64,000 nt of DNA, taken from NCBI GenBank assembly GCA_005792285.1, contig SXSI01000050.1:4297-68296 (forward strand). The letters run 5' to 3'. Under the pieces are notes generated by a model. It saw only the letters and a list, made by a program, of their open reading frames with translations. It ran no database searches and had not been told where the DNA came from. The stretch is from Bacteroidota bacterium (GTDB lineage: Bacteria > Bacteroidota > Ignavibacteria > UBA10030 > UBA8401). Below, piece by piece: positions 21,911 through 32,703 of this stretch (position 1 is the first letter of the stretch; each line of letters opens with the position of its first letter). The translations under genes and the position numbers were made by a program.

Positions 21911-22918
21911 GTGCAAATTCTGAAAATTGGAATTCTCGGAGCTGGTAGTTGGGGAACTGCATTAAGTATTGTATTTCAGCAAAATGGACATGAAGTTACT
22001 CTTTGGTCTCATAAAAAAAGTCATATCACAAAAATTCAAAAAAGTAAAGGCAAAAATGATTATTTACCTGGTGCCAAATTAAATTCAAAAATTAAGCTCA
22101 CTTCAAACTTAAATGAAGTAACTAAAAATAAAGATATAATTTTTACAGTTGTCCCTTCGCAATTTCTTAGATCTGTTTTGGAGAAAATTCCATTTTCGAA
22201 TATTTCTCAAACAATAATTTGCAATACATCAAAGGGAATTGAAATTTCAACTTTGAAGACCATGACGCAAGTTATTTCTGATGTATTTCCTTTGATAAAT
22301 AAAAAACAACTTGCAGTGTTATCTGGACCAAGTCATGCAGAGGAAGTTAGCAAAAATGTCCCAACAACAATTGTTACTGCATCATATTCAAGAAGAAATG
22401 CAAAATTAATTGCTGGAACTTTATCAACTCCATATTTTAGAATTTATATTGGAGACGATGTTCGAGGAGTTGAATTAGGTGGTTCACTTAAAAATATAAT
22501 TGCACTGGCTGCCGGAATTATTGATGGAATCGGTTATGGCGATAATACTAAAGCTGCGTTAATGACGCGTGGAATGGCTGAAATTAGCCGTTTAGGAATA
22601 AAATTAGGTGCGTTACCAAGAACTTTTAGTGGGCTTTCCGGAATGGGAGATTTGATTGTTACTTGCATGAGCAAGCATAGTAGAAATAGATTTGTTGGCG
22701 AAGAAATTGGTAAAGGGAAAAAATTAAAAGACATTCTTAAAAATATGGTTATGGTTGCCGAAGGAATTGCCACAAGTAAATCGGCTTTTAATCTTGCAAA
22801 AAAATATAAAGTTGATATGCCAATTAGTAATGCTATTTATAAAATTTTATATGAAGGAAAAGATTGTCGCGAAGCAACTTACGAACTAATGACAAGGGCG
22901 TTAAAAAATGAAAATTGA
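21911..22918 (+). CDS. gpsA: NAD(P)H-dependent glycerol-3-phosphate dehydrogenase
   Basis: GAGSWGTAL, SKGIE, LSGPSHAEEV, GSLKN, GDLIVTC.S.HSRN. Confidence 0.96.
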   Translation: MQILKIGILGAGSWGTALSIVFQQNGHEVTLWSHKKSHITKIQKSKGKNDYLPGAKLNSKIKLTSNLNEVTKNKDIIFTVVPSQFLRSVLEKIPFSNISQTIICNTSKGIEISTLKTMTQVISDVFPLINKKQLAVLSGPSHAEEVSKNVPTTIVTASYSRRNAKLIAGTLSTPYFRIYIGDDVRGVELGGSLKNIIALAAGIIDGIGYGDNTKAALMTRGMAEISRLGIKLGALPRTFSGLSGMGDLIVTCMSKHSRNRFVGEEIGKGKKLKDILKNMVMVAEGIATSKSAFNLAKKYKVDMPISNAIYKILYEGKDCREATYELMTRALKNEN

Positions 22919-24572
22919 ATTAAATTTTATAAAATTATTTATTCTACTTTTTTATTCTGTGAATTTTCTCATCTCACAACAAAAAGCTGATTTAGTAATT
23001 CTAAACGGAAAAGTTTGGACAGTTGACGAAACAAAACCTGAAGCCGAAGCAATTGCAATTTTAGGTGAAAAAATTATTGAAGTCGGAAGTGAAAAAGAAA
23101 TTCGACAATATATTTCAACTTCTACAAAAATAATTGACGCACAAAAAAAATTAATCCTTCCCGGATTAATTGATAACCACGCTCATTTTACTTCCGGCGG
23201 ATTTGAAATAACAAATATAGATTTAAGAAATGCAAAAAGTGAAATTGAATTTGCTTCAAGAATAATTAAACGTGCAAAAGAAAAACCGGGAATTTGGATT
23301 AAAGGAGGAGGATGGGATCATGAAAATTGGAAATCCGCTTCACTTCCAACAAAAGAATTAATCGACAGTGTGACACAAACTACGCCAGTTTTTGTGGATA
23401 GGTTAGATGGACACATGGCATTGGCAAATTCATTTGTAATTAAATTAGCAGGAATTACAAAAGATACACCAAATCCACCAGGAGGAACAATTGTAAAAGA
23501 TTCCAAAACAGGTGAACCAACCGGAGTTTTGAAAGATGAAGCAATGTCACTTGTTTATAAAATAATGCCACCGCAATCTTTTGAAGAAGCAATTCAAGCA
23601 ACATCCGCTGCATTAACAAGAGCAAAAGAATTAGGATTGACAAGCATTCAGGATATGACAAGCAGTATGGATCTCAAAGCATATCAGGAATTGAAAAAAA
23701 GAAATCAATTGACTGCAAGGTTATATTGTAGAATGCCAATTTCTCAGTGGAAGGATCTCGAAAATTTAGGAATCGAAACAAATTTTGGAGATAACTTTAT
23801 TAAACTTGGATCTCTTAAAGGTTATGCAGATGGTTCGCTTGGCTCATCAACTGCATTATTTTTTAAAAAATATGAATCTGAAAATACTTTTGGTTTACCA
23901 AGTGATATTTTATTGGATGGAAGATTAGAAAATTGGGGAACTAAAGCAGATAAATCGAAATTACAACTTTCAATTCATGCGATTGGTGATAGTGCAAATA
24001 ACGAAATTTTAAATATTTTTCAGCGAATTCAAAATACCAATCCAATTTGGGATAGACGATTCAGAATTGAACATGCTCAGCATCTCAATCACAAAGATGT
24101 TTTAAGATTTAAAAAATTAAATGTTATTGCATCGATGCAACCATCACACGCAATCGATGATGGACGATGGGCTGTGAAAAGAATTGGTTCCGAACGTGAG
24201 AAAGAAGCATATGTTTTTCGTTCTATTCTGAATGAAAAAATAACTTTAACTTTTGGAAGTGATTGGCCAGTTGCTCCATTAAATCCAATGTTGGGAATTT
24301 ATGCAGCAGTAACTCGAAGAACTCTTGATGGAAAAAATCCAAACGGATGGATTCCTGAACAAAAGATTTCTGTAAAGGAAGCAATAAAATGTTACACAAT
24401 TAATAATGCTTATTCTTCATTTGAAGAAAATGAAAAAGGAAGTATTACAAAAGGAAAATTAGCTGACATTATTATTTTGTCGGAAGATATTCTAACAATT
24501 GATCCTGTGAAAATAGAAAATGTAAAAGTAGAAATGACAATTGTTGGTGGACGAATAGTTTTCCAAAAATAG
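22908..24572 (+). CDS. exported amidohydrolase (YtcJ / amidohydrolase_3 family)
   Basis: signal peptide; PGLIDNHAH, HAIGD, RIEHAQ, FGSDWPV, GKLADIIILS. Confidence 0.85.
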   Translation: MKIELNFIKLFILLFYSVNFLISQQKADLVILNGKVWTVDETKPEAEAIAILGEKIIEVGSEKEIRQYISTSTKIIDAQKKLILPGLIDNHAHFTSGGFEITNIDLRNAKSEIEFASRIIKRAKEKPGIWIKGGGWDHENWKSASLPTKELIDSVTQTTPVFVDRLDGHMALANSFVIKLAGITKDTPNPPGGTIVKDSKTGEPTGVLKDEAMSLVYKIMPPQSFEEAIQATSAALTRAKELGLTSIQDMTSSMDLKAYQELKKRNQLTARLYCRMPISQWKDLENLGIETNFGDNFIKLGSLKGYADGSLGSSTALFFKKYESENTFGLPSDILLDGRLENWGTKADKSKLQLSIHAIGDSANNEILNIFQRIQNTNPIWDRRFRIEHAQHLNHKDVLRFKKLNVIASMQPSHAIDDGRWAVKRIGSEREKEAYVFRSILNEKITLTFGSDWPVAPLNPMLGIYAAVTRRTLDGKNPNGWIPEQKISVKEAIKCYTINNAYSSFEENEKGSITKGKLADIIILSEDILTIDPVKIENVKVEMTIVGGRIVFQK

Positions 24573-24587
24573 TTATTTGATATTTCC

Positions 24588-26771
24588 ATGGATGAAGTTT
24601 CGATTCAATATGGAAAAGGAATTGGTCCAAAAAGGGGAGCCGCACTTCAGGAAATCGGGATTAATACAATTGAAGACCTTTTTAATTATTTCCCATTTGA
24701 TTATTTAGACCGCTCGAGAATAATTCCAATTGCAAATTTACCTCAATTTGTTGGAAAGGGAATTGAAGTTACAATAATAGGCAAAGTTTGCAGGCACGAA
24801 TTAAAACGAACAAGGAATGGTAGAAAACTTTTCTTCTTAACATTGGAAGATGATTCAGGATTCGTTACTTCAATATTTTTTGCAGGATTTCAATGGTACC
24901 AAAAAATGTTTCCTATTGGAAAAGTAGTTGCTGCTTCTGCCTTTCCCGAAATTGATCAACATAATAAACTAGTTTTTATTCATCCCGAATTTGACAGATT
25001 ATCTTCCTTTGAATCAATTGATGACGACGACACGACGAATTGGGAAGAATTAATTCATACTGGAAAACTTGTTCCAAAATATCGAAGTTCAGAAAAATTA
25101 AGAAATGTTGGATTAGATAGTCGTGGATTTAGAAAAATAATTCACTCTGCACTTTCTAATTTTTCTCAAAAATTAATTGAAACTCTCAATCCTGAAATTT
25201 GTACAAAAAGAAATTTAATTGGATTAAAGGAAGCAATTAATGAAATCCATTTTCCGACTACAAAAGATAAACAACAACAAGCCGAGCAACGATTAAAGTA
25301 TGAGGAATTATTTTATTTTCAGTTAATGATATTAAATAGGAAGCGAGCTAGAAAAGAAAAATTAAACGGGCTTGAGTGCAAATTAGAATCAAAAATAAAT
25401 AAAAAATTTATTTATTCACTACCTTTTCAATTAACATCTTCACAAGAAAAATGTATCACAGAAATAATAAATGATTTGAGACAGCAATATTCTATGAATC
25501 GATTATTGCAGGGTGATGTTGGAAGTGGAAAGACAGTTGTTGCAATTGCTGCAATGATTCATGCAGTCGCAAATGGAATGCAATGTGCAATAATGGTTCC
25601 GACAGAAATATTAGCCGAGCAACATTTTCAAACTTTACAAAAATGGTTGAATGCATTTTCGATTAAAATAGATTTACTAGTTGGAAAACAAAAAAAGAAA
25701 AATAGATTGGCTGTTCTTCAAAAACTTCAAGAAGGCGAAATTGATATTGTAGTTGGAACACATGCTTTAATTGAAGAAAAAGTAAAATTTAAAAAATTAG
25801 GATTAATTGTAATCGATGAACAACACCGCTTTGGTGTTGCGCAAAGATCTTTACTAACAACTAAAAGTGAAATTCAACCGCACGTTCTTGTTATGACTGC
25901 AACACCGATTCCAAGAACATTATCAATGACACTTTATGGTGATTTAGATATTTCAATATTGTCCGAATTGCCAACGAACAGAAAAAAAATAATTACCGGA
26001 ATTCGGAATTCAATTGATAGGAATAAAATATACTCGTTTATCAAAAAGGAAATTAGTTTAGGGCGACAAGCATTTATCGTTTATCCATTAATTGATGAAT
26101 CTGAAAAAGTTGATTTGAAGGCTGCGCAAATAGAATATGAATCCCTTTCGACAAATACTTTTAAAGATTTTAAAATTGGTCTTTTACATGGAAGACTTTC
26201 ATCGGAAGAAAAAGAAAGTGTAATGAAAAGTTTTAAGAATGGAGAGATTAATATTTTAGTTACAACAACTGTAGTTGAAGTTGGAATTGATATTAAAAAT
26301 GCTACTGTGATATTAATTGAACATGCAAAACGATTTGGATTATCTCAACTTCACCAGTTACGAGGAAGAGTTGGAAGAGGAAGCGATCAATCTTATTGCA
26401 TACTGATTGCAGATTACGAAAACCAAAATAAAAATAAAAAAGAAGTAAGAAAAACTTCTGAGACTCAAATTGAAGTTGAGAAAGTTAAAAAACGGCTTCA
26501 GGCTTTAGTTGAATCAACTGATGGATTTGAAATTGCACAATCCGATTTAGAAATTCGTGGGCAAGGAGATTATTTTGGATTTCGACAAAGTGGAACTCCA
26601 TCATTTCGAATTGCGAATATTATTACAGATGTAAATTTACTCGAGCAAGCTCGTGAAGACGCAACAAAAATTATTTTAAATAATTTATTAACGAGCGATC
26701 AATCTTTTCATGAAATGAAATTTCATTTAGAAAAAAAAATCCTAGATCAAGTTGCTCACACAAAAATCTAA
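24588..26771 (+). CDS. recG: ATP-dependent DNA helicase RecG
   Basis: QGDVGSGKT, DEQHRFG, MTATPIPRTL, QLHQLRGRVGRG, DLEIRGQG. Confidence 0.96.
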   Translation: MDEVSIQYGKGIGPKRGAALQEIGINTIEDLFNYFPFDYLDRSRIIPIANLPQFVGKGIEVTIIGKVCRHELKRTRNGRKLFFLTLEDDSGFVTSIFFAGFQWYQKMFPIGKVVAASAFPEIDQHNKLVFIHPEFDRLSSFESIDDDDTTNWEELIHTGKLVPKYRSSEKLRNVGLDSRGFRKIIHSALSNFSQKLIETLNPEICTKRNLIGLKEAINEIHFPTTKDKQQQAEQRLKYEELFYFQLMILNRKRARKEKLNGLECKLESKINKKFIYSLPFQLTSSQEKCITEIINDLRQQYSMNRLLQGDVGSGKTVVAIAAMIHAVANGMQCAIMVPTEILAEQHFQTLQKWLNAFSIKIDLLVGKQKKKNRLAVLQKLQEGEIDIVVGTHALIEEKVKFKKLGLIVIDEQHRFGVAQRSLLTTKSEIQPHVLVMTATPIPRTLSMTLYGDLDISILSELPTNRKKIITGIRNSIDRNKIYSFIKKEISLGRQAFIVYPLIDESEKVDLKAAQIEYESLSTNTFKDFKIGLLHGRLSSEEKESVMKSFKNGEINILVTTTVVEVGIDIKNATVILIEHAKRFGLSQLHQLRGRVGRGSDQSYCILIADYENQNKNKKEVRKTSETQIEVEKVKKRLQALVESTDGFEIAQSDLEIRGQGDYFGFRQSGTPSFRIANIITDVNLLEQAREDATKIILNNLLTSDQSFHEMKFHLEKKILDQVAHTKI

Positions 26772-26804
26772 AAAATATGTTTAAAAAATAATTGCAATAA
26801 ACAC

Positions 26805-26834
26805 TTGACTATTTGAATAATAAGTATATATTTG
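26805..26834 (+). promoter_or_regulatory. FCB/Bacteroidota-type sigma70 promoter for the ligase-ligase-GNAT-kamA operon
   Basis: TTG at 26805, 19-bp spacer, TATATTTG (TAnnTTTG) at 26827-26834; also readable as TTGACT-N16-TATATT. Confidence 0.6.
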
Positions 26835-26841
26835 TATGTAA

Positions 26842-26925
26842 ATGATGATGCTTATTAGCAAAGAAAATTGTGTTCGACAGATTCCGATGGGGAAATCTGA
26901 AAAACTTCAAACTGAATGCGCGTAG
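26842..26925 (+). other. possible leaderless upstream ORF, MMMLISKENCVRQIPMGKSEKLQTECA, overlapping the start of the first ligase
   Basis: ATGATGATG about 8 nt after the -7 element; open for 27 codons to TAG 26923-26925; no homology evidence. Confidence 0.2.
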
Positions 26926-28010
26926 CTCTAGTTTACAACATCAATCACGAAGTTGCTGAGGAGAAAAAAAATTCTTCTCCATTTAATTCCTCAAAAAATT
27001 ATACTCCAAATCATACTTCTGCTTTATATAAACAACGTCATCAAGAAGTGAATGATGAGTTTGCGGAATGGGATACAATTGAAACTGTTCATGCAATGCA
27101 AAAAGCAATTGCACTTAAGCACGAAGTTATCTTAATTGAAGCTGATGAAAATGTGGCAGAATCGTTAAAAAAGGCAAAGCCACAAATGGTTTTTAACGTT
27201 GCTGAAGGCAGATATGGACCTTCTCGCGAGGCTCAGGTTCCGGCAATTTGTGAAATGTTACAAATTCCGTATACTGGTTCCGATCCAATTACACTTGGAA
27301 TTTGTTTAGAAAAATCTCGTGCAAAAGAAATTCTTTCATACTATAAAATTCCGACACCAAATTTTCGTGTTATCGAAAATTTAAACGGTTTAAAGTTTAC
27401 TCCACAAATTTTACCGGCAATTATTAAACCACTTTCCGAAGGAAGTAGTAAAGGAATTTTTGACAGTTCACTTGTTTCGAATGAAACTCAACTTAGATCG
27501 GAAGTCGAAAGAATTCTAACTCTTTATCATCAACCGGCAATTGCTGAAGAATATCTTCCTGGAAGAGAATTTACTGTTTCACTTCTTGGCAATGGAGATA
27601 AAGTAGAAGTACTTCCAATTGTTGAGCTTAATTTTGAATCTTTACCTGATGGTGTCAATCCAATTTATTCTTACGAAGCTAAATGGGTTTGGGATCAACT
27701 TGATGATCCATTAGATATTTTTAAATGTCCGGCAACTCTTTCAACACGACTTCAAAAACAAATTGAAACAATTTGTTTAGATGCATTCGAAGTTTTAAAA
27801 ATTAAAGACTGGGCAAGAATTGATGTTCGTTGCGATGGAAAAAACAGACCACATATAATAGAGATCAATCCTATTCCTGGAATTTTACCAAATCCTGATG
27901 ACCATTCTTGTTTTCCAAAAGCAGCACGTGCAGCGGGAATTGGTTATGATGAAATGATAAATAAAATTTTGGATTCTGCAATTGAAAGATATGCGAAATT
28001 AAATGCATAA
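26916..28010 (+). CDS. D-Ala-D-Ala ligase-like ATP-grasp enzyme (non-canonical paralogue 1)
   Basis: LEKSRAK, IIKPLSEGSSKGI, EEYLPGREF, YSYEAKW, ARIDVR, EINPIPG; lacks the canonical Ddl N-terminal GG.S.E motif. Confidence 0.85.
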   Translation: MRVALVYNINHEVAEEKKNSSPFNSSKNYTPNHTSALYKQRHQEVNDEFAEWDTIETVHAMQKAIALKHEVILIEADENVAESLKKAKPQMVFNVAEGRYGPSREAQVPAICEMLQIPYTGSDPITLGICLEKSRAKEILSYYKIPTPNFRVIENLNGLKFTPQILPAIIKPLSEGSSKGIFDSSLVSNETQLRSEVERILTLYHQPAIAEEYLPGREFTVSLLGNGDKVEVLPIVELNFESLPDGVNPIYSYEAKWVWDQLDDPLDIFKCPATLSTRLQKQIETICLDAFEVLKIKDWARIDVRCDGKNRPHIIEINPIPGILPNPDDHSCFPKAARAAGIGYDEMINKILDSAIERYAKLNA

Positions 28011-29130
28011 AAAATTAAGCGTTGCCATAATTTACAACGAACCAACAATCCAAACTCAAACTGGAAGAAAATTTATTTCTGAATTAAAAATAAATTCAAT
28101 TCTTATAAATCATCCAAATACTCCTGCAAAGGGAATTGATCTTTCAGAAGTTGGAATACTCGAAGAGAAGCAGGATATTCAAAACGCATTACAAAAATTA
28201 GGACACGCTTGTTCAATATTTAATGTTGCAGATGATATTCAAAATTTAATAAAATTTATTGAAGGGACTAATCCGGATGTAATCTTCAATATGGTTGAAG
28301 GCATTGGAGATTGCTCTATTCACGAAATGCACATTGCAGGTATTTATGAATTATTAGATGTTACTTACACAGGAGCTGGACCAGTTTGTTTAGGATTATG
28401 TTTGAATAAGAACAAGACGAAAGAAATTTTAATTGCCAATAATATTAGTACTCCAAAATTTGCACTTTGTACTGCATCAGAATTAGGAAAAGAAATCTCA
28501 AAATTAAAATATCCACTAATTGTAAAACCAGCTGGTGAAGATGCAAGTAATGGAATAGATAATAACTCAATAGTTTATAATAGAAGATCTCTAAATAAAC
28601 AGGTTAAATATATTTGTAGAAAATTTAAAGGGAAGGCTATTGTTGAAGAATATATTAATGGAAGAGAAATTAATGTTGCCGTAATCGGGAATAAAAAACC
28701 AAGAACACTTCCAATCTCAGAAATATCTTTTGCAAAACTGCAGAAACATTTACCACCAATTGTAACTTATAATGCAAAATGGATATCTGGTAGTGATGAA
28801 TATAAAGGAACCAATGGAGTTTGCCCTGCGGAACTTCCAAAAAGACTTGAAAAAGAAATAAATGCAATTGCGTTGAAAGCTTTCAAAATTATGGGATGTC
28901 GAGATTATGCTCGAGTTGACATGCGTTTGAATAAAAATGGAAAACCGTTTGTCTTGGAAGTAAATCCAAATCCGGATATTAGTGATGATGCCGGTTTCGC
29001 TCGTTCTTCAAAAGCAGGCGGATATACTTACGAAGAAATTGTTCAGCAAATTTTAGTTTATGCATCAGAAAGAAATAAAAAGATAACTACTCGCAAGAAA
29101 AAAACAAGACTTGTCGGAATTTCGGCGTGA
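28003..29130 (+). CDS. D-Ala-D-Ala ligase-like ATP-grasp enzyme (non-canonical paralogue 2)
   Basis: LNKNKTK, IVKPAGEDASNGI, EEYINGREI, TYNAKW, ARVDMR, EVNPNPD. Confidence 0.85.
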   Translation: MHKKLSVAIIYNEPTIQTQTGRKFISELKINSILINHPNTPAKGIDLSEVGILEEKQDIQNALQKLGHACSIFNVADDIQNLIKFIEGTNPDVIFNMVEGIGDCSIHEMHIAGIYELLDVTYTGAGPVCLGLCLNKNKTKEILIANNISTPKFALCTASELGKEISKLKYPLIVKPAGEDASNGIDNNSIVYNRRSLNKQVKYICRKFKGKAIVEEYINGREINVAVIGNKKPRTLPISEISFAKLQKHLPPIVTYNAKWISGSDEYKGTNGVCPAELPKRLEKEINAIALKAFKIMGCRDYARVDMRLNKNGKPFVLEVNPNPDISDDAGFARSSKAGGYTYEEIVQQILVYASERNKKITTRKKKTRLVGISA

Positions 29131-29598
29131 ATGATACGCACATTACTTTCTCATGATCGTGAACCGATCGTTAATATTCTTATTTCAACCAAATTTTTTT
29201 CAGAAGAAGAAGTTTCTATTGCCAGAGAAATTCTCGATATCTACATCGACGATCAAAATCAAAAAGATTATTTAGTGTACGTCTCCGAAGAAAATGATTT
29301 AGTTACAGGATATGTTTGTATCGGTAAAACTCCTGCAACAGTTGGTACGTTTGATTTGTATTGGATTGCAGTCGATCCATCGATTCAAGGAAAGGGAATT
29401 GGGACACAACTTTTTAATTATATAAAAAATCAAATAAAAGAATTAGCGGGGAATTTAATAATTGCAGAAACATCGTCAACAGAAAAATATATATCGACGC
29501 AAAAATTTTATGAAGCAAAAGGATTTCAATTATTTACAAGAATTAAAAATTATTATAAACCAAACGACGATTTAATGATTTACGGAATTTATATTTAA
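29131..29598 (+). CDS. single-domain GNAT N-acetyltransferase
   Basis: LYWIAVDPSIQGKGIG (acetyl-CoA binding motif A), FYEAKGF. Confidence 0.9.
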   Translation: MIRTLLSHDREPIVNILISTKFFSEEEVSIAREILDIYIDDQNQKDYLVYVSEENDLVTGYVCIGKTPATVGTFDLYWIAVDPSIQGKGIGTQLFNYIKNQIKELAGNLIIAETSSTEKYISTQKFYEAKGFQLFTRIKNYYKPNDDLMIYGIYI

Positions 29599-29609
29599 AG
29601 GAGGAAAAA

Positions 29610-30728
29610 ATGGAACTTTGGCAAAAAATGATTCGTGATAGTGTTAACTCTGGAGAGGATTTAGTTAAAAAATTTGATTTCGATAGAGAGCTTGCCGACA
29701 AATTAAATAATTTATTTCATATCAGAATTAATCCTTATTATTTAAGTTTGATTAGGGAAAAAGGAGATCCAATTTGGTTGCAATGTATTCCAGATGAAAA
29801 AGAATTAGTAGAAGACAATATGCCACTTGATCCATTGGAAGAAGAAAAATTTAGTCCAGTGCCAAGTATTACGCACCGATATCCAGACAGAGTTTTATTT
29901 TTAACTACAAGTCAATGTTCGATGTATTGCAGATTTTGTACAAGGAAAAGAAAAGTAAGTGATCCAACGAAAATTAGTATGAAGTTTATTCAAACTGGAA
30001 TTGATTACATCTCTGCTCATCCCGAAATCCGTGATGTTGTATTGTCCGGAGGTGATCCTTTAATGTTGACAAATGTTATGTTAGAAAAAATACTTGCCGG
30101 TTTGCGCGCAATTCCTCATGTTGAAATTATTAGATTAGGAACAAAAATTCCATGTGTGCTTCCACAAAGAGTAACTGCAAAACTTTGCAAAATGATAAAA
30201 AAATATCATCCAATTTATGTGAACACACATTTCAATCATCCATGGGAATGTACACCTGAAGCAAAGTTATCTTGCGAAATGTTAGCAGACGCAGGTTGCC
30301 CAGTTGGTAATCAGGCAGTATTAATGAAAGGTGTAAATGACAACGCAGAAGTAATGTTGGAGCTCCATCGAAAATTACTTGCAATGAGAGTTCGGCCATA
30401 TTATTTGTATCAAGCTGATCTTACAAAAGGAACAAATCATTTTAGAGTTCCCGTAAGAGTTGGATTAGAAATTATGGATAAACTTCGTGGTCACACTTCT
30501 GGGCTTGCGGTTCCATATTATGTAATTGATGCACCGGGAGGTGGAGGAAAAATTCCAATTTTGCCGCAATATGTTCTTGGCAGAAAAGACAATAAAATTA
30601 TTCTTCGAAATTATAAATATGATGTTTTTGAATATCCAGATGTTGTTGAAGACGAAATAGTTGAACCAGTAACTAATGGGAAAAAAGATCAACCTTCAGA
30701 AAAGATAAACGAAAAAGTCTTAGTTTAA
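29610..30728 (+). CDS. KamA-family radical SAM/PLP 2,3-aminomutase, lysine-type
   Basis: HRYPDR, CSMYCRFC, SGGDPL, HFNHP, YQADL, VIDAPGGGGK (PLP lysine); SD AGGAGG upstream. Confidence 0.92.
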   Translation: MELWQKMIRDSVNSGEDLVKKFDFDRELADKLNNLFHIRINPYYLSLIREKGDPIWLQCIPDEKELVEDNMPLDPLEEEKFSPVPSITHRYPDRVLFLTTSQCSMYCRFCTRKRKVSDPTKISMKFIQTGIDYISAHPEIRDVVLSGGDPLMLTNVMLEKILAGLRAIPHVEIIRLGTKIPCVLPQRVTAKLCKMIKKYHPIYVNTHFNHPWECTPEAKLSCEMLADAGCPVGNQAVLMKGVNDNAEVMLELHRKLLAMRVRPYYLYQADLTKGTNHFRVPVRVGLEIMDKLRGHTSGLAVPYYVIDAPGGGGKIPILPQYVLGRKDNKIILRNYKYDVFEYPDVVEDEIVEPVTNGKKDQPSEKINEKVLV

Positions 30729-30757
30729 TTGAAGTTATAGTTCGTCGCCTTCTTCTC

Positions 30758-30765
30758 TAATTTTG
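30758..30765 (+). promoter_or_regulatory. possible -7 promoter element for dnaG
   Basis: TAATTTTG matches TAnnTTTG about 50 nt upstream of dnaG; no well-placed -33 TTG. Confidence 0.3.
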
Positions 30766-30813
30766 TAGATTTATTAATTTTTTCTTACAAATTTTTTTAC
30801 CTAAATTTTTAAC

Positions 30814-32703
30814 ATGCCAATCTCGCAATCTACAATCGAAGAAATCCGTAGCTCAACTGATATAGTTGAAGTTATTGGCAAAGTAGTACGGTTAATGAAA
30901 AAAGGAAAATCGTACAAAGGGCTTTGTCCATTCCATTCCGAAAAAACTCCTTCCTTCACAGTTAATTCCGAAAAAGGATTGTACTATTGTTTTGGTTGCC
31001 ATAAAGGGGGAGATGCAATAAAATTTGTAATGGAATTTTTCAAATATTCTTACGTTGAAGCTTTAGAAATGTTAGCTGAGAAATCTGGAATAAGAATTAT
31101 TCAAACTACTGAAAATATAGATTTAAATGAAGAAAATGAAAAGTTAACTTACGCACTTAATTTTGTCTCAAATTTATTTCAGACTCAACTTTTTGAATCT
31201 GAAGAAGGTAAAAATGCAAGTGAGTATCTTTATTCCAGAAAATTAAATGATGAAACAATTGATAATTTCAAAATCGGCTACTCATTAAAAAGTTGGGATG
31301 GATTAATACATGCAGCAGAAGTTGAAGGAATTTCTACAGAACTTTTGTTAAAAATTGGTTTAATTAAACGGAAGGAAGATAACACGCATTACGATACCTT
31401 TCGTGGTAGAATAATGTTCCCAATTCATTCTACAATGGGAAGAATTATTGGATTTGGTGCGCGTAAAATGTATGATGACGATCCGCTTGGAAAATATATT
31501 AATTCAAGCGACTCTGTAATTTATCAAAAAAGTAAAATACTTTACGGATTAAATTATTCAAAAGATGGAATCCGCCAAAAAAATTACGCTCTTCTTGTTG
31601 AAGGTTATCTGGATTATTTAAGTTTGTATCAAGCAGGATTTAAAAATGTAGTTGCTTCAAGTGGGACAGCATTAACAAATCAACAAATTCAGATTCTCGC
31701 GCGATACACTTCAGTAATTTATTTTGTTTTCGACGGAGATTCAGCAGGTTCTTCTGCAATGGTTCGTGGAATTGATTTGATTCTTGAATCCGGACTCGAC
31801 GTTCGCATTATTGATTTACCAAGTGGAAATGACCCCGATCAATTTATTCGTGAAAAAGGAAGTGAAGAATTTACAAAACTTATATCCAATGCAATATCGT
31901 TTATCCAATTTAAGGCCAACACTTTACAGAAAGCTGGAAAATTTAATTCTGCTGAAGGAAAAGCTGAAGCTGTGCGTGAAATTGTTAATTCAATTGCTAA
32001 AATTAAAGATCCAATAAAACAAGCGTTCTTTATTAGAGAAGTTGCTCAAAAATATGATTTATATGAATCAACTTTGAATACAGTGTTGGAGGAAATAACT
32101 ATTCAACAAAGATCTGAAAGAATTAGAACGGAGGCTCACCAATTCGATACTATTCCTGAAGATGTAAACGAAACTTTATTAACTCGGGAAGAAAATAAAA
32201 TAATTCCTGAAAATATTCCAATTGAAGAGAAGGAATTGCTTTCATCAATGATTGAAAATCCGAAAAAAATATGCTCGTTTGTTTTTTCACATATTAATTT
32301 AGAAGAATTTACACACCCAATTTCAATTACTCTTGCAGAAATACTTTCGCATTCATCTACCGAAGGGGAAGTTATTTCTGTTAATTCAATTTATAGCAAA
32401 GTAGAAAATGAGCAATTAAAATTATTTCTTTCTGAGTTATCCGCAATGCAATATCAATTAAGTAGTGATTGGGATTCTATCGGTTCAAGATTAAGTGAGG
32501 ACAGATTATTGAATGTTGCTTTTGGTGCAATTAAAAAAATGAAAGTTAAGAAATTAGAAATCGAAAGAGATAAAAATCAGGAACAACTTAAAACCTCATC
32601 ATTAAATAAATTAGATCCTTCAGGTTATTTAAATAAACATAAAGAGTTGCTTCAACGAATTAAAAATATTCAGGAAATGAAATTAGAAACCCGATTGAAT
32701 TAA
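30814..32703 (+). CDS. dnaG: DNA primase
   Basis: Zn finger CPFH..KTPSF..CFGC, FRGRIMFPI, KYINS, VEGYLD TOPRIM, FDGDSAG, DPD. Confidence 0.97.
   Translation: MPISQSTIEEIRSSTDIVEVIGKVVRLMKKGKSYKGLCPFHSEKTPSFTVNSEKGLYYCFGCHKGGDAIKFVMEFFKYSYVEALEMLAEKSGIRIIQTTENIDLNEENEKLTYALNFVSNLFQTQLFESEEGKNASEYLYSRKLNDETIDNFKIGYSLKSWDGLIHAAEVEGISTELLLKIGLIKRKEDNTHYDTFRGRIMFPIHSTMGRIIGFGARKMYDDDPLGKYINSSDSVIYQKSKILYGLNYSKDGIRQKNYALLVEGYLDYLSLYQAGFKNVVASSGTALTNQQIQILARYTSVIYFVFDGDSAGSSAMVRGIDLILESGLDVRIIDLPSGNDPDQFIREKGSEEFTKLISNAISFIQFKANTLQKAGKFNSAEGKAEAVREIVNSIAKIKDPIKQAFFIREVAQKYDLYESTLNTVLEEITIQQRSERIRTEAHQFDTIPEDVNETLLTREENKIIPENIPIEEKELLSSMIENPKKICSFVFSHINLEEFTHPISITLAEILSHSSTEGEVISVNSIYSKVENEQLKLFLSELSAMQYQLSSDWDSIGSRLSEDRLLNVAFGAIKKMKVKKLEIERDKNQEQLKTSSLNKLDPSGYLNKHKELLQRIKNIQEMKLETRLN

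Follow-up and report, generated by a model that had tools for sequence, protein, structure and literature searches.

A four-gene unit encoding two ATP-grasp ligases, a GNAT acetyltransferase and a KamA-family lysine 2,3-aminomutase was confirmed as a genuine, self-contained unit that recurs as such across phyla, and its genes are co-transcribed as one operon. On balance, and with some reservation, we favour the view that this operon makes a small beta-lysine-derived amide that would be formed and used inside the cell and would be neither D-Ala-D-Ala nor the osmolyte of the AblA/AblB route. No such pathway was described in the full-text literature searched, in line with the earlier, sequence-only reading of this DNA, which had proposed an undescribed pathway. 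Beyond that first observation, the analysis adds RNA coverage in fresh water, fusions of ligase 2 to the GNAT, a linked deacetylase and the absence of efp.

Organization and conservation of the cassette

The cassette is located between recG and dnaG, surrounded by housekeeping genes, in the 64-kb stretch of DNA that was analysed (the window), and at 33.1% GC it differs little from the window as a whole (30.6%). The features of the region are the following:

26805-26834, + strand: likely promoter (consensus scan; block invariance in relatives; RNA contig 5' ends)
26916-28010, + strand: ligase 1, 364 aa, Ddl-derived ATP-grasp ligase; PF07478 (Dala_Dala_lig_C) 4e-32
28003-29130, + strand: ligase 2, 375 aa, paralogous ATP-grasp ligase; PF07478 (Dala_Dala_lig_C) 4e-36
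29131-29598, + strand: GNAT, 155 aa; Acetyltransf_7 1.6e-13, Acetyltransf_1 1.3e-10
29599-29604, + strand: Shine-Dalgarno sequence AGGAGG, read directly; ends 5 nt upstream of the KamA start codon
29610-30728, + strand: KamA, 372 aa, short KamA-family lysine 2,3-aminomutase (radical SAM, PLP)

The open reading frames and the coupled junctions previously proposed were all confirmed by reading the sequence: ligase 1 and ligase 2 overlap by 8 nt (ATGCATAA), ligase 2 and the GNAT abut with a 0-nt gap (TGA/ATG), and the GNAT and KamA are separated by 11 nt containing a full Shine-Dalgarno sequence (TAA-AGGAGGAAAAA-ATG). As had also been claimed, lysine-fermentation and EF-P ligase genes are not adjacent: no lysine-fermentation, efp or epmA-like gene was found within 10 kb of the cassette, and efp is absent from the whole 64-kb window.

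Failure of the four genes to co-occur in other genomes had been named beforehand as a refuting result, but the cassette recurs in many phyla. Among the 80 best loci retrieved with ligase 1, 70 had both ligases and KamA and 68 the GNAT as well, and four independent samplings gave 70/80, 21/33, 68/79 and 57/80 loci with the two ligases and KamA. Gene order in the conserved loci was ligase 1-ligase 2-GNAT-KamA or KamA-ligase 1-ligase 2-GNAT. The carriers belong to Ignavibacteriota/Bacteroidota, Acidobacteriota, Planctomycetota and Desulfuromonadales, many of them from groundwater, fens and lakes, and comprise hundreds of species instead of a scatter of strains. Conservation of sequence is high (KamA about 80% within the phylum), and the recG-dnaG synteny was kept in 35 of 41 Ignavibacteria-type loci of the first sample. 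No additional gene family was common to the cassette loci across phyla: searches for a conserved exporter, resistance gene, regulator or candidate substrate protein, and for mur, fts, UDP-sugar, carrier or precursor genes in any lineage, revealed none linked to the cassette. The efp gene was present in 0 of the first 192 loci checked, and no Na+ or other riboswitch was observed 5' of the cassette in the window and 21 loci. Since about 19 Gemmataceae-type loci have no adjacent GNAT, acetylation may be accessory, and an acetylated product may not be general.

Promoter and transcription

The proposal that the cassette has its own promoter was based on a consensus match, TTGACT-16-TATATT at 26805-26832 (TTGACT at 26805-26810; TATATT, within TATATTTG, at 26827-26834). 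Sites of this kind are no more frequent here than in shuffled sequence (23 observed vs 24.5 expected); TATATTTG is also compatible with a Bacteroidota-type TAnnTTTG element. The block AATAAACACTTGACTA...TATATTTGTA, in turn, is unchanged in two relatives with a ligase 1 of only 73-74% identity, the remaining spacer having diverged, and RNA contigs from three metatranscriptomes have their 5' ends at 26863, 26882 and 26899, just 3' of the block. Two further RNA contigs extend upstream into recG. An own promoter is likely because the block is invariant in relatives and RNA contigs start just downstream of it.

Expression in freshwater lakes is clear: seven metatranscriptomes of lake or freshwater origin contain RNA contigs that cover the cassette. 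All junctions are crossed by single RNA contigs (X12, 26429-30530; X26, 27165-28555 and 28667-31148). Cassette contigs were several-fold deeper than recG/dnaG contigs in six of the seven metatranscriptomes (66 vs 4-19 in X12, 38-44 vs 0-9 in X26, 15-35 vs 0-11 in X28, and likewise in X27, X29 and X30). Contig depth reflects expression poorly, and DNA can be present in RNA libraries. In X25 a single contig covers recG and the cassette together, so it gives no help on relative depth. Depth over the region was flat in DNA runs (16-25 in X1; 6-14 in X5).

KamA retains the active site of lysine 2,3-aminomutase

KamA passed the KamA-family model TIGR00238 (294.7 bits, cut-off 199.2), and its highest scores were those to AblA (455 bits, below the cut-off of 525) and lysine 2,3-aminomutase (LAM); the arginine 2,3-aminomutase model gave 338 bits and the EpmB model 234 bits (cut-off 369). 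Alignment with Clostridium subterminale LAM (PDB 2A5H; 1.4e-112) matched YQADL of KamA with YQCDL of LAM (Asp293), and IDAPGGGGK with VDAPGGGGK (Asp330 and Lys337). The CxxxCxxC motif, Arg134, Asp293, Asp330 and Lys337 were kept in all 89 cassette copies of KamA, which bears out the claim that both lysine-binding aspartates of the clostridial enzyme are retained; a replacement of the glutamate 2,3-aminomutase type is excluded. All 89 copies lack the Zn site (Cys268 and the C-terminal cysteines).

The two ligases diverge from Ddl in their substrate pocket

Relationship to Ddl is evident in both ligases: they show 26-30% identity to Escherichia coli DdlB, their solved-structure matches at E<=1e-10 are exclusively ligases of the D-Ala-D-Ala, D-Ala-D-Lac or Van type, and many members are publicly annotated as D-alanine--D-alanine ligase. 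The ATP/Mg residues of DdlB (K97, K144, E180, E187, K215, R255, D257, E270 and N272) are kept in both, with E or D at the E180 position in ligase 2. On the best Ddl model, however, ligase 1 and ligase 2 scored 181 and 170 bits, respectively, against a cut-off of 243, and the D-Ala-D-Ala-binding residues given in PMC6899670 are changed. Ligase 1 differs by H63E, Y216W, L282C and a 4-residue insertion ahead of the Ser281 equivalent, and retains Tyr210, Gly276 and Ser281, a Ddl-like nucleophile site; ligase 2 differs by H63E, S150A, Y210V, Y216W, G276D, S281A and L282G, Gly276 being strictly conserved in Ddl. This reading of the pocket comes from alignment to DdlB alone, in which the Glu15 region aligns ambiguously. 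By score and by pocket residues, the ligases are not Ddl, as the sequence-only reading had anticipated.

The ligase 1 gene always came first in the pair and that of ligase 2 second. The copies in first and second position formed separate clades (support 0.94 and 0.998, respectively), which indicates that the two ligases are not redundant.

GNAT fusions and a linked deacetylase

The GNAT remained under every NCBIfam cut-off, its best curated match being RimI (47.6 bits, cut-off 86.4), and its best solved relative, 2R7H (4.6e-30), is a structural-genomics entry with no assigned function. As previously noted, it is unlike the AblB acetyltransferase: it has 155 aa, and no AblB-type model was among its NCBIfam matches. 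Of the best 150 GNAT representatives, 23 were fusions to ligase 2, and such fusions were found in about 29 genome loci; all 23 fusions of about 500 aa were to ligase 2 and none to ligase 1.

The only recurrent extra neighbour of the cassette was a GNAT-Hist_deacetyl protein, which lies next to it in 35 of 272 loci and is arranged in three or more ways. The best solved relatives of this deacetylase are acetylpolyamine amidohydrolases (6PHR, 4.4e-71); it carries a second, different GNAT domain and matches no curated family. It does not occur in the 64-kb window and is missing from most loci, and enzymes of the HDAC family are also able to use proteins as substrates.

Proposed pathway and alternative explanations

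In the pathway that we favour, KamA would convert L-lysine into beta-lysine, as its complete LAM active site suggests. The two ligases, presumably descended from one duplicated Ddl-like ancestor, would each form one amide bond via an acyl-phosphate. Ligase 1 probably takes an alpha-amino-acid-like amine, since it keeps the Ddl-like nucleophile site, and ligase 2 one that is bulkier and cationic, for example beta-lysine itself, since its site is rebuilt with a gained Asp (V210, D276, A281, G282). The GNAT would work directly with ligase 2 and acetylate a free amine, most likely a terminal aliphatic (epsilon-type) one given the acetylpolyamine-amidohydrolase character of the deacetylase recruited elsewhere. 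The product, probably cationic, could be an N-acetylated beta-lysyl di- or tripeptide or a short oligo-beta-lysine, rather than N-epsilon-acetyl-beta-lysine alone; it would be made constitutively and not under salt stress alone, and it probably remains in the cell, because no exporter is linked.

The residues from which the substrate of KamA is assigned might also be present in an enzyme that forms beta-arginine or beta-ornithine, and it is quite unlikely, though conceivable, that KamA acts on arginine, ornithine or already-joined lysine, the building block then not being free beta-lysine. Such a reading would fit an AblA score under the equivalog cut-off, the score to the arginine 2,3-aminomutase model and a short C-terminus unlike that of characterised LAM, but the residues for the carboxylate (Arg134) and the epsilon-amine (Asp293, Asp330) are invariant, and KamA scores best against AblA and LAM. 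A compatible solute, that is, a peptide osmolyte or thermolyte accumulating under salt or other stress as a beta-lysine analogue of NAGGN or an elaborated N-epsilon-acetyl-beta-lysine, is unlikely but deserves consideration. A GNAT with an ATP-grasp enzyme is the logic of NAGGN synthesis, KamA is nearest to the AblA equivalog model, and the product is probably intracellular. The AblA/AblB product is itself a known osmolyte (PMC3543383). The osmolyte analogy of the earlier reading is nevertheless weakened because the carrier here, a freshwater or lake organism, expresses the cassette above its neighbours; the origin of many carriers in groundwater, fens and lakes and the lack of riboswitches point the same way, and an acetylpolyamine-type deacetylase is more in keeping with a switchable cation than with an inert solute.

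The earlier reading listed a wide range of roles, one of which may yet prove correct. Incorporation into protein or cell wall is disfavoured, since the deacetylase is the sole recurrent neighbour and no efp, mur, carrier or precursor gene is linked. Attachment of beta-lysine to EF-P (EpmA-independent) or to a ribosomal protein (RimK/RimI-like), followed by acetylation, seems improbable: some ATP-grasp enzymes, RimK and TTL among them, have proteins as their targets, KamA resembles E. coli EpmB (N at position 268) in being short and devoid of the Zn site, and RimI is the best curated match of the GNAT, but known Ddl-family members join small molecules, the deacetylase is nearest to small-molecule enzymes, and no conserved substrate protein is linked. 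Moreover, epmB typically clusters with efp (PMC2821294), which the 192 loci checked lack, and KamA falls below the EpmB cut-off. We regard synthesis of D-Ala-D-Ala or of some other stem-peptide dipeptide by one or both ligases, or entry of beta-lysine into peptidoglycan, as extremely unlikely; the solved-structure matches and public annotation agree with a cell-wall role, but the ligases score below the Ddl cut-off, carry changed D-Ala-D-Ala-binding residues (Y216W in both), have no linked mur, fts or UDP-sugar gene and are always accompanied by KamA. A secreted antibiotic, signal or antimetabolite with a beta-amino acid is highly improbable as well. Beta-lysine and beta-arginine occur in peptide antibiotics, and several dipeptide antimetabolites are built by ATP-grasp ligases; against this stand the syntenic housekeeping context, the lack of conserved exporter, resistance or regulator genes, high sequence conservation, steady in situ expression and the presence in hundreds of species.

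Comparison with known systems

The intracellular beta-lysine amide pathway proposed here shares with the AblA/AblB (KamA/YodP) route to N-epsilon-acetyl-beta-lysine a lysine 2,3-aminomutase beside an acetyl-CoA-dependent GNAT and, probably, acetylation of a terminal amine. It differs from it in a KamA under the AblA cut-off, in a short GNAT with no AblB-type match that is dispensable in some lineages, in the constant presence of two ATP-grasp ligases and in expression in fresh water. In NAGGN synthesis, Ngg is a GNAT fused to an ATP-grasp ligase, acting together with AsnO, and the product is a small N-acetylated peptide; acetylation and ATP-grasp ligation thus reside in one protein, as in the ligase 2-GNAT fusions of relatives. 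The likeness is in logic only: the cassette has ATP-grasp enzymes from the Ddl family, the ligase domain precedes the GNAT, a second ligase and an aminomutase are present, and an amidotransferase is not.

With the Ddl family, the cassette ligases have in common the fold and all ATP/Mg catalytic residues, whereas they lie below the family cut-offs, have a rebuilt substrate pocket and an extra N-terminal insert, and occur outside a mur/fts context as two diverged paralogues in tandem. Clostridial LAM has a Zn site that is missing from the cassette KamA, whose short C-terminus also sets it apart from characterised LAM. EpmB of the EpmB/EpmA system is likewise a short KamA-family enzyme with Asp293 but without the clostridial Zn site; however, position 330 is Asp in the cassette KamA, as in LAM, and Glu in EpmB, KamA is far below the EpmB cut-off, and neither efp nor a LysRS-like EpmA is near the cassette loci. 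Finally, polyamine acetylation and deacetylation combine a SpeG-type GNAT with an acetylpolyamine amidohydrolase, and the joining of a related deacetylase to the cassette in 35 of 272 loci suggests, by analogy, that an aliphatic amine is N-acetylated reversibly as a switch. Unlike those systems, the linked deacetylase is fused to a second GNAT domain, belongs to no curated family and is absent from the window, and the amine would be a beta-lysine derivative instead of a classical polyamine.

Organization of the four-gene operon

The six-frame ORF list of the window contains four co-directional genes, referred to here as the cassette, which encode two Ddl-like ATP-grasp ligases, a GNAT protein and a member of the lysine 2,3-aminomutase family (KamA):

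26916-28010, + strand, ligase 1 (364 aa; Pfam Dala_Dala_lig_C, 4e-32)
28003-29130, + strand, ligase 2 (375 aa; Pfam Dala_Dala_lig_C, 4e-36)
29131-29598, + strand, GNAT (155 aa; Pfam GNAT families)
29610-30728, + strand, KamA-family enzyme (372 aa; Pfam Radical_SAM and LAM_C)

Direct reading of the sequence revealed an 8-nt overlap between ligase 1 and ligase 2 (ATGCATAA), a 0-nt gap between ligase 2 and GNAT (TGA|ATG), and an 11-nt gap with a full Shine-Dalgarno sequence between GNAT and KamA (TAA-AGGAGGAAAAA-ATG). The four-gene unit with coupled junctions proposed in the sequence-only reading was thus borne out by both the ORF list and the junctions themselves. At 33.1%, the GC content of the cassette differs little from the 30.6% of the window, and the flanking genes are housekeeping genes, with lpxB, lpxK, queA, ispD, plsY, gpsA, an amidohydrolase gene and recG upstream and dnaG, icd and a HIT protein gene downstream. 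The setting of the ligases is therefore recG/dnaG, and not mur/fts. The amidohydrolase (22908-24572; Amidohydro_3, 554 aa), whose N-terminus is hydrophobic, lies directly upstream of recG, a position kept in a 73%-identity relative (locus L278). A family of about its size recurs in 14 loci of the Ignavibacteria-like group, and no linkage of this protein to the cassette was seen in other phyla.

Conservation of the cassette across phyla

Ligase 1 has at least 7993 relatives at E ≤ 0.001 among 8000 candidates scored. Species-representative genomes were sampled four times with different queries, and loci carrying both ligases and KamA were recovered in every case.

Loci with two ligases and KamA in four samplings of species-representative genomes
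Query; loci with two ligases and KamA; arrangement
Ligase 1; 70/80; 68 also with GNAT, 59 in the exact order ligase 1-ligase 2-GNAT-KamA
GNAT orthologue 2R7H; 21/33; mostly KamA-ligase 1-ligase 2-GNAT
Geobacteraceae ligase 1; 68/79
Ligase 2-GNAT fusion; 57/80

Co-occurrence of the four genes in other genomes had been set as a test of the proposed pathway, and the genes clearly travel together, so that the unit is no curiosity of one genome. Cassette loci were found in Ignavibacteriota/Bacteroidota, Acidobacteriota (Aminicenantes, Thermoanaerobaculia), Planctomycetota, Gemmatimonadota, Lentisphaerae, Kiritimatiellae and Myxococcota, as well as in Desulfuromonadales, Desulfobacterales, Desulfovibrionaceae, and Alpha- and Gammaproteobacteria; cultured carriers include Desulfuromusa kysingii DSM 7343, Pelovirga terrestris and Ignavibacterium album. 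Only loci of the Ignavibacteria-like group share the recG and dnaG flanks. All-against-all clustering of the ORFs of 113 loci yielded no cross-phylum neighbour family except a GNAT-deacetylase, described below, and matches to ABC transporters near the cassette were inconsistently placed among loci.

One Ignavibacteriota metagenome-assembled genome (L016, 9212-11376) carries three ligases, with an extra ligase 2-type copy before GNAT and KamA, and the same pattern (ligase 1-ligase 2-ligase 2-GNAT-KamA) also occurs at single loci elsewhere. Three-ligase loci of this kind would be consistent with each amide bond having its own ligase, and with a product whose length varies.

KamA is predicted to form beta-lysine

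Alignment of KamA with Clostridium subterminale lysine 2,3-aminomutase (2A5H; 1.4e-112) revealed conservation of the CxxxCxxC cluster, Arg134, Asp293 (YQADL vs YQCDL), Asp330 and the PLP lysine 337 (IDAPGGGGK vs VDAPGGGGK). Arg134, Asp293, Asp330 and Lys337 were invariant in all 89 cassette KamAs compared, so that the two lysine-binding aspartates on which the sequence-only reading had relied are kept in every one of these copies. KamA passed the family model TIGR00238 (294.7 vs a cut-off of 199.2); its nearest equivalog was AblA, though below the cut-off (455.2 vs 525.4), and the shortfall was larger for the glutamate, arginine and EpmB equivalogs. Since the lysine-binding residues are kept and AblA is the nearest equivalog, beta-lysine is the expected product.

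The Zn site of the clostridial enzyme, formed by Cys268 and C-terminal cysteines, was absent from all 89 KamAs: D, N, E or S occupies position 268, and no tail carries three or more cysteines. The C-terminal domain is incomplete, the LAM_C match covering only profile positions 1-57 of 127. E. coli EpmB likewise lacks the clostridial Zn site.

The two ligases diverge from Ddl

The Dala_Dala_lig_C domain and the ATP-grasp fold are present in both ligases, which public annotation labels 'D-alanine--D-alanine ligase', a misannotation repeated in many homologue names. Neither protein reached the cut-off of the Ddl models NF002378 (181.4 bits for ligase 1 and 169.8 for ligase 2 vs 243) or TIGR01205 (145.8 and 139.7 bits vs 245.65). 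To compare residues, 57 ligase 1 and 49 ligase 2 orthologues were aligned with E. coli DdlB. The ATP/Mg residues K97, K144, E180, E187, K215, R255, D257, E270 and N272 were kept in both ligases, either invariant or as E/D, and both ligases are for this reason probably active.

In Ddl, D-Ala-D-Ala is held by Tyr210, Tyr216, Arg255, Gly276, Ser281 and Leu282 (E. coli numbering), Gly276 being strictly conserved and Leu282 conserved in 90% of sequences (PMC6899670). The set Tyr210, Tyr216, Gly276, Ser281 and Leu282 is complete in neither ligase. In both, Glu invariantly replaces His63 and Trp invariantly replaces Tyr216. Tyr210, Gly276 and Ser281 are retained in ligase 1, which has Cys in place of Leu282 and carries a conserved 4-residue insertion (LPNPEDN) before position 282; ligase 2 has Val210, Asp276, Ala281 and Gly282 (Y210V, G276D, S281A, L282G), together with Ala150. 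Judged from the model scores and these residues, neither ligase is expected to act as a Ddl, and the substrate pocket has been rebuilt.

In a tree of 78 tandem pairs rooted on DdlB, the first-position ligases formed one clade (support 0.94) and the second-position ligases another (0.998), with zero exceptions. The two ligases thus go back to an old duplication and have a fixed order, indicating that they have distinct jobs. From their pockets we infer that ligase 1 may accept an alpha-amino-acid-like nucleophile, and that ligase 2 may accept a bulkier, cationic nucleophile such as beta-lysine.

GNAT, its fusions and a deacetylase partner

The cassette GNAT passed three Pfam GNAT models, and an acetyl-CoA-binding motif (IQGKGIG) is readable in its sequence. 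A solved orthologue, 2R7H (4.6e-30), was deposited without functional data; its best identity among the loci returned was 53%. The title of this entry, 'putative D-alanine N-acetyltransferase', was, we would guess, carried over from the 'D-Ala-D-Ala ligase' annotation of a neighbouring gene. A search for literature citing 2R7H returned a single mention, in work on a tRNA-acetylating toxin of Salmonella, an unrelated protein.

Searched against 1.84 billion representative proteins, the GNAT gave 1168 relatives at E ≤ 1e-10. Among the best 150, 23 were proteins of ~500 aa in which the GNAT forms the C-terminal part, and in all 23 the N-terminal part was nearer ligase 2 than ligase 1. These fusions emerged from the GNAT search, the ligase 2 homologue search having returned close relatives only and zero fusions, and they occur in ~29 genome loci of several phyla. 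The fusion of the two proteins argues that ligase 2 and GNAT act together. In about 19 Gemmataceae-type/Planctomycetota loci (L237, L254, L262 and ~16 others) the arrangement is KamA-ligase 1-ligase 2 with no adjacent GNAT, and the core chemistry would therefore be beta-lysine formation and two ligations, with acetylation as an added step. The stop-to-stop frames of KamA in these GNAT-free loci are 470-540 aa long.

The one recurrent extra neighbour is a ~580-aa protein, covered by no curated NCBIfam model, that combines a weak GNAT domain at its N-terminus with a Hist_deacetyl domain (1.7e-74). It was present in 35 of 272 loci, located between ligase 2 and GNAT, upstream on either strand, or downstream, and is absent from the window. 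In Desulfuromusa kysingii DSM 7343 its gene lies 3' of KamA on the same strand. Other linked examples are found in loci L091 (5153-6907), L101 (5162-7486) and L182 (8657-10400); in L101 the deacetylase and the cassette GNAT are joined as well, in a single 774-aa protein of the type GNAT-deacetylase-GNAT. The closest solved relatives of the GNAT-deacetylase are acetylpolyamine amidohydrolases (6PHR, 4.4e-71; 9GKZ; 3MEN; 3Q9B), enzymes whose substrates are small aliphatic polyamines acetylated at a terminal amine. Because of this resemblance, the partner suggests, by analogy, that the acetyl group sits on an epsilon-type amine of a small-molecule product and not on a protein N-terminus.

Likely promoter and transcription in fresh water

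The sequence-only reading gave the cassette its own promoter. The site in question, TTGACT-16-TATATT at 26805-26832, is a consensus match only, and sites of this type are equally common in shuffled sequence (23 found vs 24.5 expected), so that the match by itself stands at chance level. However, the block AATAAACACTTGACTA and the element TATATTTGTA are invariant in two relatives with 73-74% identity in ligase 1, in which the remaining spacer has diverged, and the stretch recurs in many metatranscriptomes from lakes and fresh water at about 98-99% identity. Both observations raise the standing of the site, which is likely a promoter, with the start of transcription expected near 26840. A 27-codon ORF (MMMLISKENCVRQIPMGKSEKLQTECA, 26842-26925) starts right after it and overlaps the start codon of ligase 1; this ORF was discarded, being unconserved in the two closest relatives and probably due to chance.

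Contigs assembled from seven lake or freshwater metatranscriptomes were compared with the window, and contigs spanning the gene junctions were obtained in four of them.

Cassette contigs in RNA runs and their depth, contig depth being a rough measure of expression and the contigs being strandless
Run; contig coordinates; cassette depth; recG/dnaG depth
X12; 26429-30530, spanning junctions; 66; 4-19
X25; 24057-30946, spanning junctions; recG and cassette on one contig, contrast uninformative
X26; 27165-28555 and 28667-31148, spanning junctions; 38-44; 0-9
X27; start at 26863; 7-17; 0-6
X28; 27066-28238 and 28637-29519, spanning junctions; 15-35; 0-11
X29; start at 26882; 7-13; 0-6
X30; start at 26899; 13-19; 1-15

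The starts in X27, X29 and X30 lie downstream of the predicted -10 element and ahead of the start codon. The depth of the cassette contigs exceeded that of the recG/dnaG contigs in six of the seven RNA runs, whereas two DNA runs were flat across the matching 14 kb (X1, 16-25; X5, 6-14). From this consistent contrast, together with the DNA controls, it follows that in fresh water the operon is transcribed as one unit and, by the rough measure of contig depth, more strongly than the adjoining replication genes of the lake bacterium.

No terminator is evident 3' of KamA, and the X26 contig continues into dnaG. The contigs of X12, X27, X29 and X30 all break off at about 30526-30532, within the 3' part of KamA, which encodes the variable C-terminal tail of the enzyme, and the next X12 contig begins at 30583. 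The probable cause is a polymorphic stretch that interrupted the assembly, and not an RNA end.

Possible products of the cassette

Altogether, the operon is real, conserved and expressed. We judge, by a narrow balance, that it makes a small intracellular beta-lysine amide. A more far-reaching proposal, which we regard as rather unlikely, is that the product belongs to an undescribed class of organic polycations and, in many bacterial phyla that are mostly anaerobic, acts constitutively as a housekeeping metabolite resembling polyamines. In such a scheme, short oligo-beta-lysines or beta-lysyl amides would be assembled by the two dedicated Ddl-derived ligases, and the charge of their terminal amine would be switched by acetylation through the cassette GNAT and deacetylation through the acetylpolyamine-amidohydrolase-type partner.

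Beta-lysine could alternatively serve to modify EF-P or another protein. The gene epmB normally clusters with efp (PMC2821294), but neither the window nor any of the first 192 loci examined contains efp, and the cassette KamA missed the EpmB model by a wide margin (233.7 bits vs a cut-off of 369.3). A role of the ligases in the cell wall, the alternative that their annotation would suggest, is opposed by their scores below the Ddl cut-offs, by the rebuilt D-Ala-D-Ala pocket and by the lack of any linked mur or fts gene. The product may serve as an osmolyte, although the freshwater habitat and the expression in situ oppose a strictly salt-induced solute, as does the result of Rfam searches upstream of the cassette, in which no riboswitch or leader match above chance (including Na+ and lysine riboswitches) was obtained in the window and none in 21 loci of other phyla. 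A secreted antibiotic is opposed by the broad distribution, by the housekeeping neighbourhood and by the absence of genes for export or resistance. A reading as anti-phage defence was rejected, with zero PADLOC matches for all four proteins.

Identifying the compound would correct a widespread misannotation of ligases and add a beta-lysine branch to the central metabolism of nitrogen and lysine in anaerobes that have been little studied (Ignavibacteria, Aminicenantes, Planctomycetes and Desulfuromonadales). It would also yield two new ATP-grasp ligase specificities, useful for the enzymatic making of beta-peptides. The cassette is small and self-contained and has cultured carriers, so the question is directly testable.

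Comparison with known systems

The enzymes belong to known families, and their combination has no described product in the literature searched: a search of the full texts open without subscription found the unit described nowhere. The GNAT-ligase fusion of cassette relatives resembles the synthesis of NAGGN, by analogy and in logic only. Of the described systems, AblA/AblB comes closest; it is cited in PMC3543383 for Pelobacter and methanogens, and in it the aminomutase is paired with a beta-lysine N-epsilon-acetyltransferase. The separation from this route that had been claimed for the GNAT and the ligases was upheld, since no AblB-type model appeared among the 10 NCBIfam matches of the GNAT, all of them below cut-offs, and two ligases are always present. 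The cassette is thus like AblA/AblB in the type of aminomutase, and probably likewise in the site of acetylation, and differs from it in its other GNAT, in its two obligatory ligases, and in a carrier that lives and expresses the cassette in fresh water.
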